From Escherichia coli (GTDB lineage Bacteria; Pseudomonadota; Gammaproteobacteria; Enterobacterales; Enterobacteriaceae): a stretch of 64,000 nucleotides of DNA. The DNA lies in the NCBI RefSeq assembly GCF_048403405.1, contig NZ_CP183129.1. The stretch is one strand, 5' to 3'. The position numbers were made by a program, and so were the translations under genes. Below are positions 9,320 through 58,248 of this stretch, in pieces. The notes below the pieces were generated by a model. The model saw only the letters and a program-made list of their open reading frames with translations. It was not told the DNA's origin and made no database searches. The stretch's first letter is position 1, and each line of letters starts with the position of its first letter.

Positions 9320-9395
9320 TGCTGAATGCGCTTATCCGGCTTACAGCAGTACCAAACTGTAGCCGGATAAGGCGTTTACGCCGCATCCGCCATAA
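9320..9395. repeat. REP (repetitive extragenic palindrome) copies
   Basis: tgcgcttatccggcttacagc...gtagccggataaggcgtttacgccgcatccg, the canonical E. coli REP/PU consensus, between hpaI and hpaX. Confidence 0.55.
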
Positions 9396-46339: not shown

Positions 46340-46374
46340 GCCGGATGCGGCGTGAATGCCTTATCCGGCCTACA
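46340..46374. repeat. REP-like palindromic element
   Basis: gccggatgcggcgtgaatgccttatccggcctac in the uxuB-uxuR spacer. Confidence 0.5.
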
Positions 46375-49581: not shown

Positions 49582-50925
49582 ATGCATGTGCTTAACATTC
49601 TCTGGGTGGTATTCGGCATTGGTCTGATGCTGGTACTGAATTTGAAGTTCAAAATCAATTCAATGGTGGCTTTGTTGGTGGCGGCGCTGTCCGTCGGGAT
49701 GCTGGCGGGCATGGATTTGATGTCGCTGCTGCACACCATGAAAGCGGGCTTCGGCAACACGCTGGGGGAACTGGCTATCATCGTGGTGTTCGGTGCGGTC
49801 ATCGGTAAATTGATGGTCGACTCCGGCGCGGCGCACCAGATAGCGCATACGCTGCTGGCGCGTCTCGGTCTGCGCTATGTACAGCTGTCGGTGATTATCA
49901 TCGGCCTGATTTTCGGTCTGGCGATGTTTTATGAAGTGGCCTTTATCATGTTAGCGCCGCTGGTTATTGTTATTGCCGCCGAAGCTAAAATTCCGTTCCT
50001 GAAACTGGCGATCCCGGCAGTAGCAGCTGCCACTACCGCACATTCACTGTTCCCACCGCAGCCGGGTCCGGTGGCGCTGGTGAATGCTTATGGCGCGGAT
50101 ATGGGGATGGTTTATATCTATGGCGTACTGGTGACGATCCCAAGTGTCATCTGCGCAGGTCTGATCCTGCCGAAGTTCCTCGGCAATCTTGAGCGCCCAA
50201 CGCCATCATTCCTGAAAGCAGATCAACCGGTAGATATGAATAATCTGCCCTCTTTCGGCGTTTCGATTCTGGTGCCGCTGATCCCGGCGATCATTATGAT
50301 CTCTACCACCATCGCCAATATCTGGCTGGTAAAAGATACCCCTGCCTGGGAAGTGGTTAACTTTATCGGTTCCTCGCCGATTGCAATGTTTATTGCGATG
50401 GTGGTTGCATTCGTACTCTTCGGCACCGCGCGCGGGCACGATATGCAGTGGGTGATGAACGCTTTTGAAAGCGCGGTGAAGAGTATTGCAATGGTGATTC
50501 TGATCATCGGTGCGGGTGGCGTGCTGAAGCAGACCATCATCGACACCGGCATTGGCGACACCATCGGCATGTTGATGTCCCACGGCAATATCTCGCCCTA
50601 CATCATGGCATGGCTGATCACCGTACTGATTCGTCTGGCGACGGGTCAGGGTGTCGTTTCGGCGATGACCGCTGCCGGGATTATCAGTGCAGCAATCCTT
50701 GATCCAGCAACTGGTCAGCTGGTTGGCGTGAATCCGGCGCTGCTGGTACTGGCGACGGCTGCGGGTTCCAACACCCTCACCCACATTAACGATGCATCTT
50801 TCTGGTTGTTCAAAGGTTACTTTGACCTGTCAGTAAAAGATACGTTGAAAACCTGGGGTCTGCTGGAGCTGGTCAACTCCGTGGTTGGGCTGATTATTGT
50901 GCTGATTATTAGCATGGTAGCGTAA
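49582..50925 (+). CDS. gntP: GntP-family gluconate/fructuronate permease
   Basis: 447 aa polytopic membrane protein, divergent from uxuA. Confidence 0.9.
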
Positions 50926-50989
50926 AAGAACACCTGAGCCTGCCATTGGCAGGCTCTGACTGATGACAAAGTCTAAAAATGTGCCCGGC

Positions 50990-51110
50990 CAGTCCCCTCG
51001 CCCCTCCGGGGAGAGGGTTAGGGTGAGGGGAACAGACCAGCAAAGTGCGCTTTGTTTATGCCAGATGCGACGCTGACGCGTCTTATCTGGCCTACAAAGG
51101 GCTAACGTGC
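50990..51110. repeat. Clustered repetitive extragenic elements (BIME-like: gagggg-rich unit plus REP)
   Basis: cccctcgcccctccggggagagggttagggtgaggggaa followed by tgccagatgcgacgctgacgcgtcttatctggcctac. Confidence 0.5.
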
Positions 51111-51167
51111 AGGTTTTTAGCTTCAGGTAATATTGCGTACCTGCATTAGCAATGTCCTGTGATTTCT

Positions 51168-52070
51168 TTATTGATAAACAAAAGTCACGCCAATAATCGA
51201 TTGCACATTCCCTGCAGTCACCTGCCCTCCGGTACGTGCGTAATTTGCCGTTAATCCCAGACTTACCGCCGAAGTCCCTACTGCTCCTAACGATACCGTG
51301 TTATTCGCTGGAATAATCGTACCGTTGCGTGTCAACTGTACGCCGACGCCCTGCGCTGGTGAAAACGAGGCGGTATTGGTGAAAATCGAGTTGCCCGCAT
51401 CTGCGGTTGTGCCGGAGAGGTAATACCCCAGGTTTTGGCTTTTCGCACAATAAACGGTAAGAGGAATTGGCACTGAACCAGGGTAGTCCGGCAGAGTAAC
51501 GGTGACATCACGAGCAGAAACATCGCAGCCGCCAGTGGGCACCACCACATCATTATTGGCGTAAATATTCCACACAAACTGAAAATCATCGCTGTTATAG
51601 TTGTTGGTCTGTCGCAAAATAAGCACGGCAATTAATGAACCAGCTTTAATCGCCACCCCGCCCGCACTGCTCACAGGCGTCAAATAAAGCGCCACCGGCC
51701 ACGGCTTATCCGTTCTCGAATTATAAACAACGCGCGGCGTTTCGCTGGTGGTCGGAAATGGATAGCTACTGCCACTATATTTTACGGTCCCGGAAAAATT
51801 AGATAACACGCCGCCGTAAGCCGAGCCTCGTTGCAGTGTGACATAGTCTGTAATGGTTTCCGGGTAATCGTTATGGCAAAAGATTTGCGTCGAAAGATCT
51901 ACGACCAGGTTTTGCCCCACATTCACGGCGGGCGCAAGGTTTACATAAACATTGGCGCTGCCACCGCCAATAGGGATAGCGGTGCCATTGGCGGTTTTAC
52001 AGGCGAATGACCAGGCATTTACCGACCAGCCCATCAGCAGTACAGCAAACAGGGTAATAACTCGTTTCAT
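51168..52070 (-). CDS. fimH: Type 1 fimbrial tip adhesin (mannose-binding)
   Basis: 300 aa from MKRVITLFAVLLMGWSVNAWSFACKTANGTAIPIGGGSANVYVNLAP... Confidence 0.9.
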   Translation of the reverse strand: MKRVITLFAVLLMGWSVNAWSFACKTANGTAIPIGGGSANVYVNLAPAVNVGQNLVVDLSTQIFCHNDYPETITDYVTLQRGSAYGGVLSNFSGTVKYSGSSYPFPTTSETPRVVYNSRTDKPWPVALYLTPVSSAGGVAIKAGSLIAVLILRQTNNYNSDDFQFVWNIYANNDVVVPTGGCDVSARDVTVTLPDYPGSVPIPLTVYCAKSQNLGYYLSGTTADAGNSIFTNTASFSPAQGVGVQLTRNGTIIPANNTVSLGAVGTSAVSLGLTANYARTGGQVTAGNVQSIIGVTFVYQ

Positions 52071-52089
52071 TACAATCATCTCTTCGGGT

Positions 52090-57887: not shown

Positions 57888-58201
57888 TTGGGGCCATTTT
57901 GACTCATAGAGGAAAGCATCGCGCACAAACTTTTTCAGTTTATTTGTTGGCTTAATATTCTATTGTTATCTTTATTTATAGATTTTTATATTGCATGAGG
58001 TGGTTTTTGGAGAGAAGAATGAGGAAGATGCGTCGAGCCACAGAAACGTTAGCTTTACATTTGGCGGAGGTGATGTGAAATTAATTTACAAGAGAAATAA
58101 TTTACATATCAAACAGTTAGATGCTTTTTATCGTTTTTTAATATTTTTATGCTTGAGAAAAAATACGTAACTTATTTATGATATGGACAGTTTGGCCCCA
58201 A
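57888..58201. promoter_or_regulatory. fimS: fimS invertible phase-variation switch bounded by 9-bp inverted repeats
   Basis: TTGGGGCCA at 57888-57896 and its inverse TGGCCCCAA at 58193-58201, 314 bp end to end, lying between fimE and fimA. Confidence 0.85.
58153..58183 (+). promoter_or_regulatory. sigma70 promoter inside fimS (TTGAGA-N18-TATGATA), directed towards fimE
   Basis: -35 TTGAGA at 58153-58158 and -10 TATGATA at 58177-58183 on the + strand, just inside the fimE-proximal inverted repeat; points away from fimA. Confidence 0.5.
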
Positions 58202-58248
58202 TTGTCTTGTATTTATTTGTTTTTTAACTTTATTATCAATGAGTTAAA

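Follow-up and report, generated by a model that had tools for sequence, protein, structure and literature searches.

The systems closest to the spacer between gntP and fimH in Escherichia coli are the REP sequences, the BIMEs and the BoxC elements. In a BIME, a linker connects a REP with a second REP of opposite orientation; BIME-1, also known as RIP or RIB, unites the unit types Y and Z1 across a long linker that often carries an IHF site, BIME-2 is built of Y and Z2 in tandem arrays, the linker motifs are catalogued as L, S, s, l and r, and binding by IHF, Pol I and gyrase has been reported for BIMEs (PMC3333891). In REP325, the source of the Rfam family naRNA4, Z2 and Y units are said to alternate, and REPs in general are described as 3'UTR stabilisers of the upstream mRNA and partial Rho-dependent terminators that are enriched between convergent genes, where about 60% of them lie (bioRxiv 10.64898/2026.03.23.713779). 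The third family goes by several names: the E. coli intrastrand triplex motif TMECO was earlier called BoxC and PIT (PMC4666352, Holder et al. 2015), and the HPG1 G-quadruplex-hairpin motif is another name for the BoxC element (Kaplan et al. 2016, PMC5100583). The family has been described as a 56-bp repeat with 32 copies or a 50-bp repeat with 22 copies (PMC2267715), the TMECO motif numbering 23 copies in K-12 (PMC4666352). Oligonucleotides of the type A mm form fold into a triplex in vitro with a Tm of 74 °C, no stable triplex was found in vivo at a BoxC site, and the element has neither promoter nor terminator activity nor a demonstrated role in gene expression; the sequence around BoxC loci is excessively variable, and no association with transposons, phages or plasmids has been reported (Holder et al., PMC4666352).

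The spacer studied here lies in a 64,000-nucleotide stretch of E. coli DNA—the window—and covers exactly positions 50926-51167 (242 bp) between two convergent open reading frames: gntP, coding for the fructuronate/gluconate permease on the + strand (49582-50925, ending with the stop codon), and fimH, coding for the type 1 fimbrial adhesin on the − strand (51168-52079, stop codon 51168-51170). The sequence-only reading of this stretch had assigned the same two names and the same convergent arrangement, both of which agree with the list of open reading frames and with the RefSeq annotation of strain TUM14771, whose spacer is 100% identical, and of K-12 MG1655. It had further described a composite repeat cluster made of a palindrome, a G-rich motif and a canonical REP unit, and the three strings quoted for them—gcctgccattggcaggc at 50938-50954, cccctcgcccctccggggagagggttagggtgaggggaa at 50994-51032 and gccagatgcgacgctgacgcgtcttatctggcctac at 51060-51095—are all in place and, judged by folding z-scores and shuffles of the window, all non-random. 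The features are thus real, but they are already known and ordinary, and the spacer as a whole is an ordinary, strain-variable patchwork of repeats and most probably not an IHF- or gyrase-binding BIME. Scanning the whole window with Rfam yielded zero matches at the gathering thresholds and, at an E-value threshold, just one half of naRNA4—that is, the REP—together with a spurious snoRNA match, so that no known small RNA was found in the spacer by this search. No repeat feature is listed there in the K-12 RefSeq record, and the RepRanger supplements are without coordinates for the gntP-fimH locus.

The palindrome had been placed directly after gntP, and there it stands: it starts 11 nt past the gntP stop codon and occupies 50936-50956 as a perfect inverted repeat, GAGCCTGCCA-t-TGGCAGGCTC, the 10-nt arms of which are 100% complementary. 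Its predicted fold is stable on both strands, with −17.9 kcal/mol on the + strand (z = −5.3, 0 of 200 shuffles being as stable) and −18.2 kcal/mol on the − strand (z = −4.4). The palindrome is a single-copy sequence of this locus, kept throughout the alignment in every E. coli allele as well as in E. albertii and Escherichia sp. MOD1-EC7003. Two natural variants of it are found, a C>T in E. albertii and an A>G in NT1F25; in both, the hairpin can stay paired, through G-U, in the gntP-sense RNA only, and this hints at selection on a gntP 3' hairpin. Concerning termination, a terminator-like score is obtained on the − (fim) strand only and for the present allele only; the alleles of NT1F25 and E. 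albertii are not flagged, and the call of an intrinsic terminator is for that reason not robust. On the + strand the palindrome is followed by the tail UGACUGAUGAC, without a clear U-tract. Since the U-tract is missing from the gntP strand and the score is confined to the fim strand, it is safer to call the palindrome a 3'-end hairpin, probably one common to the RNAs of both convergent transcripts, than to regard it as a proven intrinsic terminator.

The G-rich motif is a BoxC element with its G-rich strand on the + strand. Its core, CCCTCGCCCCTCCGGGGAGAGGGTTAGGGTGAGGGG, is located at 50995-51030 and is of type A with one mismatch; the BoxC consensus CCCTCNCCC-N3-6-GGGNGAGGG-N3-GGGNGAGGG is matched exactly at 50995-51029, once in the window against 0.00 expected, and the pattern of the motif as first delimited (50994-51032) is likewise expected 0.00 times in shuffles of the window. 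The name BoxC reportedly goes back to Bachellier and colleagues, that of the PIT element to Hoyne and Maher in 2000. All 36 nucleotides of the core are identical to TMECO no. 23 of K-12 (type A, one mismatch, second loop TTA), which is catalogued at 4,549,883-4,549,848 between fimH (137 nt away) and gntP (70 nt away) (PMC4666352 Table 1, Table S2), and the K-12 copy is also entered as HPGQ 52 in a survey of G-quadruplexes (PMC5100583, Kaplan 2016). The similarity to catalogued repeats that was to be looked for does therefore exist, as the motif is already listed at this very locus, but its assignment to a BIME has to be withdrawn: exact consensus and catalogue number place it in the separate, named family BoxC/PIT/TMECO.

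The repeat extends beyond the core. When this copy and six K-12 copies of type A—seven in total—are aligned, they resemble each other from about 21 nt before the core, on its 5' side, through the core to a following AAnA, the 3' flank not being conserved; the repeat unit at 50973-51035 (+ strand) accordingly comprises the flank CTAAAAATGTGCCCGGCCAGT, the core and AACA. A 56-bp extended unit (50985-51040) is detected by BLAST at a median of 16 and a maximum of 27 places per E. coli genome. In the alignments the element sits on a longer, 82-bp segment (50959-51040, + strand) that is confined to the long alleles of the spacer, the short alleles and the outgroups having in its place the 13 bp TTCGGATTGTCGG. 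The unique 5' flank of that segment, 50953-50996, is single-copy and occurs in 2837 of the 5426 complete E. coli genomes (52%); no second locus that might have served as its donor was found in E. coli. A long-range pairing of 50973-50987 with 51106-51120 was rejected as a feature of the spacer, its left arm lying in the BoxC segment, which ancestral alleles do not have.

The REP, here REP-A, is one complete unit of 37 nt, TGCCAGATGCGACGCTGACGCGTCTTATCTGGCCTAC, at 51059-51095, 72 nt past the fimH stop codon. Its CTAC end falls at 51092-51095, so that the GTAG form reads on the − strand, the strand of fimH. It aligns to positions 44-76 of naRNA4 with 30.7 bits (E = 0.0094), which is below the gathering score of that model (59.5) because only one of its two hairpins is present. 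The hairpin reaches −21.4 kcal/mol on the + strand (z = −6.8, none of 200 shuffles as stable) and −21.9 kcal/mol on the − strand (z = −6.3), in folds with an internal 1x1 or 2x2 loop, and an outer inverted repeat (GCGCTTTGT at 51047-51055 and ACAAAGGGC at 51094-51102) that extends the stem over 51047-51102 forms in the whole-spacer folds of both strands. The REP pattern CTTATCNGGCCTAC, quoted as the REP consensus in PMC12306157, is matched exactly, five REP ends being present in the window against 0.05 expected, and the pattern of the REP as first delimited (51060-51095) has 0.00 expected matches in shuffles. BLAST locates REP-A in 5425 of 5426 E. coli genomes, with a median of at least 40 places in each, and at this locus it is invariant, save for a few SNPs, in the alignments of all E. 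coli alleles. With the naRNA4 hairpin, the published consensus and at least 40 copies per genome, the description as a canonical REP unit proves correct, and 51059-51095 is a bona fide REP. It is probably of the long Z type, given the match to a naRNA4 hairpin and the description of REP325 as a Z2/Y alternation; the naming of the REPs of this locus as Y, Z1 or Z2, after the Bachellier/Gilson consensus sequences, has indirect support from the sequence. Elsewhere in the window there are further sequences of REP type, namely short Z-type units at 22730-22759 and 39312-39341 and REP ends at 9331-9344 and 46360-46373.

Between REP-A and fimH lies what is left of a second REP. The 22-nt linker AAAGGGCTAACGTGCAGGTTTT (51096-51117), which in other alleles separates the two REPs, is followed at 51118-51129 (+ strand) by 12 nt, TAGCTTCAGGTA, recognisable in the alignment as the stub of an inverted short Z-type REP, REP-B, from which 18 nt have been deleted in the window allele and in K-12. 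In E. albertii REP-A and the 22-nt linker are followed by an intact inverted short REP, GTAGGCCTGATAAGCGTTGCGCATCAGGCG, and the 249- and 180-bp alleles of E. coli hold a degenerate REP-B, GTAGGTCTGATAGCGTAGCGCCTCAGGTA; two inverted REPs with a linker are thus present in these alleles, not in that of the window. The short-REP consensus, allowing up to three mismatches, has no match in the spacer, its two matches in the window being those at 22730 and 39312. Since E. albertii and the other alleles retain the second, inverted REP, the locus once held a REP pair. At the site of the former REP-B, the window has T at 51142 where K-12 has A, which creates a 6-bp stem between CAGGTA (51124-51129) and TACCTG (51138-51143); this extra hairpin, seen in the window and NT1F25 alleles, is not significantly stable as a local fold (z = −1.0 and −1.4).

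These observations decide how far the cluster can be read as a BIME. The sequence-only reading saw in palindrome, G-rich motif and REP a BIME-like arrangement able to bind IHF or gyrase; taken further, this would make the cluster a local organiser of the chromosome. A true REP is indeed there, the ancestral locus did have the BIME-like geometry of two inverted REPs across a 22-nt linker, and it is to BIMEs that binding of IHF, Pol I and gyrase has been ascribed (PMC3333891). Yet the present allele holds a single REP and a 12-nt stub, both REPs of the locus—where the pair survives—look like Z type whereas BIME-1 and BIME-2 are defined by Y+Z1 and Y+Z2, and neither the single-copy palindrome nor the G-rich motif of the BoxC family is a part of a BIME. 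The claim of IHF binding finds no counterpart either, as the IHF consensus WATCAANNNNTTR has four matches in the window and none within 50926-51167. That the three parts form such a protein-binding element is consequently very improbable, and the term "BIME-like" fits only the ancestry of the fimH-proximal half, not the three listed parts and not this allele. Two of the IHF-consensus matches, TATCAAACAGTTA at 58107-58119 and TATCAATGAGTTA at 58234-58246, are exact, on the + strand and about 130 nt apart; both precede the fim structural genes and may well be the sites at which IHF acts on the invertible fim switch.

Comparison across strains, as had been proposed, shows that the spacer varies in length, with alleles of 242, 249, 173, 180 and 184 bp in E. 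coli, 253 bp in E. coli E69 (which represents a GTDB species of its own), 186 bp in E. albertii and 127 bp in MOD1-EC7003. In an evenly spaced sample of 60 genomes, spacers of 172-174 bp are found in 24 and those of 241-243 bp in 21, to which eight genomes with a 242-bp spacer beside an internally deleted gntP have to be added; 180 bp (three genomes), 249 bp (two) and other lengths (two) make up the rest. The gntP deletion, seen in strain BE2-5 and in the ~8/60 sampled genomes, removes 1181 bp corresponding to window positions 49640-50820 and puts about 54 bp of other sequence in their place (compare L021 1322-1375), so that of gntP a C-terminal fragment of 93 nt, annotated as a pseudogene, is left beside an otherwise normal spacer of 242 bp. 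The last gntP codons of the window contain a tandem 12-nt direct repeat, TTGGGCTGATTA / TTGTGCTGATTA, at 50885-50908, one unit of which is missing from the deleted class (matched region 390 bp versus 402). On the other side, fimH of strain CE0021a (L008 1701-2950) is truncated by an IS5-like ISKpn26 insertion, with 126 nt of its 3' end left beside a 180-bp spacer. The short spacer of MOD1-EC7003 (L012 10149-10275) is without REP-A and the 22-nt linker (~62 bp), the second REP following directly on GCGCCTTTG; in E. coli a TTTGT stands on either side of the block that is absent here, an arrangement that a deletion between short direct repeats could explain.

The outgroups also bear on the origin of the BoxC segment. 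The short alleles of E. coli, E. albertii and MOD1-EC7003 have in common the junction (A/T)GTTCGGATTGT(C/T)GG, and because both outgroups possess this short form, the simplest view is that the ancestor had no BoxC here and that E. coli probably acquired it after the split. The alternative, three independent losses each restoring the same junction, is unlikely. The direction of change rests on these two outgroup genomes: the outgroup scan, in which contigs were searched with the back-translated GntP C-terminus, returned three species-level genomes, and E. fergusonii and other cryptic clades were not recovered.

A gain would at first sight suit a MITE-like mobile element that inserted here and produced a target-site duplication, all the more as the shared unit 50973-51035 is bracketed by two direct copies of CAAAGT read from the + strand, one at 50967-50972 on its 5' side and one at 51041-51046 directly after the segment specific to the long alleles, and has the imperfect inverted flanks CCGGCCAGT and ACAGACCAG. 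The junctions, however, do not fit. Excision of the unit with one CAAAGT leaves TGACTGATGA and not the TGTTCGGATTGTCGG of the short allele; BoxC copies share no conserved 3' flank, and the literature reports no link of the family to transposons, phages or plasmids (PMC4666352). At two further loci, tauD-hemB and adk-hemH, an unrelated segment stands in the BoxC-less alleles where the others have BoxC, which is not the pattern of a clean insertion. The CAAAGT target-site duplication is rejected, the empty alleles being imprecise at gntP-fimH, tauD-hemB and adk-hemH alike, and the insertion of a mobile element at this site is quite unlikely. The BoxC-less allele of tauD-hemB carries a small hairpin, GCCGGGTTGGATAACCCGGC, where BoxC would be. 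Presence or absence of BoxC is thus a matter of segment replacement at all three loci examined. From this one might go on to suppose, tentatively and with rather little confidence, that BoxC spreads by replacing existing sequence just downstream of genes instead of by simple insertion and loss. If this were true, it would point to a possible unrecognised templated or repair-linked mechanism by which the family is acquired, and a side effect at gntP-fimH would be that the tail of the gntP 3' hairpin was replaced, with possible changes in read-through.

As for recombination, the repeat cluster had been proposed to act as a breakpoint, which in its stronger form would make it a preferred one at the edge of the fim/leuX genomic island. 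The fim cluster has been described as part of the leuX island bordered by gntP (PMC4374849), and unusual variability has been reported for BoxC loci (PMC4666352). All four combinations of BoxC presence or absence with the two fimH-side variants are seen (the 242-, 249-, 173- and 180-bp alleles), so that at least one exchange must have taken place within the minimal incompatible interval 51039-51118, which spans the REP. The Hudson-Kaplan four-gamete test, though, gives a minimum number of recombination events of Rm = 26 across 2.4 kb in nine strains, the intervals being distributed as 12 in gntP, about four in the spacer and 10 on the fimH side; with Rm high everywhere the hot-spot test on these nine strains is not discriminating, and the slight surplus in the spacer goes along with a greater density of informative sites there. 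Moreover, the adjacency of gntP and fimH is conserved in E. albertii and MOD1-EC7003, the junction of the two genes being therefore old and stable. Of the proposed breakpoint, the exchange in the REP-bearing interval stands, but the spacer is not demonstrably special within a region that is mosaic over its entire 2.4 kb, and a preferred role for the repeats is unlikely.

Based on the above results, the spacer is probably a 3' UTR, assembled from four independent modules, that is shared by two transcription units running towards each other: gntP on the + strand and, on the − strand, the fim operon with fimH as its last gene. These would be the conserved GC-rich palindrome, 11 nt after the gntP stop codon; one BoxC/PIT/TMECO element on an 82-bp segment that appears to have taken the place of 13 ancestral bp in roughly half of the E. 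coli genomes; one complete long Z-type REP; and, beside fimH, the 12-nt remnant of an inverted short REP which ancestrally would have formed a BIME-like pair with REP-A. The identity of the modules, their copy number, their variation among strains and the likely order of events come directly from the comparisons described. Their function is seen through published work on the families concerned, by analogy with which the spacer may serve as terminator and stabiliser. Once transcribed, palindrome and REP would form stable RNA hairpins able to shield the upstream mRNA from 3' exonucleases and to bring about partial, often Rho-assisted termination, which in turn would limit antisense read-through between the converging units. 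With REP-B lost, no strong hairpin would precede REP-A in the fim 3' UTR. The BoxC element, when single-stranded, may fold into an intrastrand triplex or a G-quadruplex, and such loci are reported to show raised local sequence instability, which fits the replacement polymorphism at gntP-fimH.

What looked like a BIME is hence a patchwork of separate catalogued families, BoxC/TMECO 23 and a single REP, and binding of IHF or gyrase is most probably no property of this allele. This matters little beyond annotation, and what is new here amounts to small additions: the decay of a second REP, the frequencies of the spacer alleles, and a BoxC segment that was probably gained by replacing other sequence. 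The spacer is nevertheless a handy multi-allelic marker beside fimH, a gene widely used for typing, with its E. coli alleles of 173, 180, 184, 242 and 249 bp and BoxC in about half of the genomes. The locus also provides a natural pair of alleles with which to ask if BoxC or the loss of REP-B alters termination or mRNA stability of gntP and fim.

Compared with known systems, the palindrome resembles the bidirectional terminators or 3'-end stabilisers found between convergent genes, being a GC-rich, perfect palindrome right after a stop codon and equally stable on both strands; unlike those hairpins, it lacks a U-tract on the strand of gntP, and on that of fim its tail is only marginally T-rich and runs into the gntP stop codon. 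With respect to BIMEs, E. albertii and the 249- and 180-bp alleles are alike in having opposite REPs whose CTAC/GTAG ends face each other across a 22-nt linker, but in the window the second REP is down to 12 nt, the pair looks like Z+Z instead of Y+Z, the linker is without an IHF consensus, and there is no tandem iteration. REP-A itself conforms to the REP/PU family: over 37 nt it forms an imperfect palindrome, interrupted by an internal bulge and with CTAC/GTAG at one end. One position apart, its 3' half agrees with the Stern consensus ...CG(c/t)CTTATC(c/a)GGCCTAC, and REP-A aligns to the second hairpin of naRNA4 (REP325), from which its outer stem, GCCAGAT...ATCTGGC against GCCTGAT...ATCAGGC, differs by a compensated T/A swap; like 84 of the 584 REPs of K-12 (PMC3333891), it occurs singly. 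Finally, the BoxC copy shows no difference from its family at the level of the element, with the same locus and the same distances to both genes as in the catalogue. Against the published emphasis on deletion, the empty junction in two outgroups suggests a gain here, and in contrast to a clean indel, the BoxC polymorphism at gntP-fimH is a replacement, 82 bp for 13 bp.
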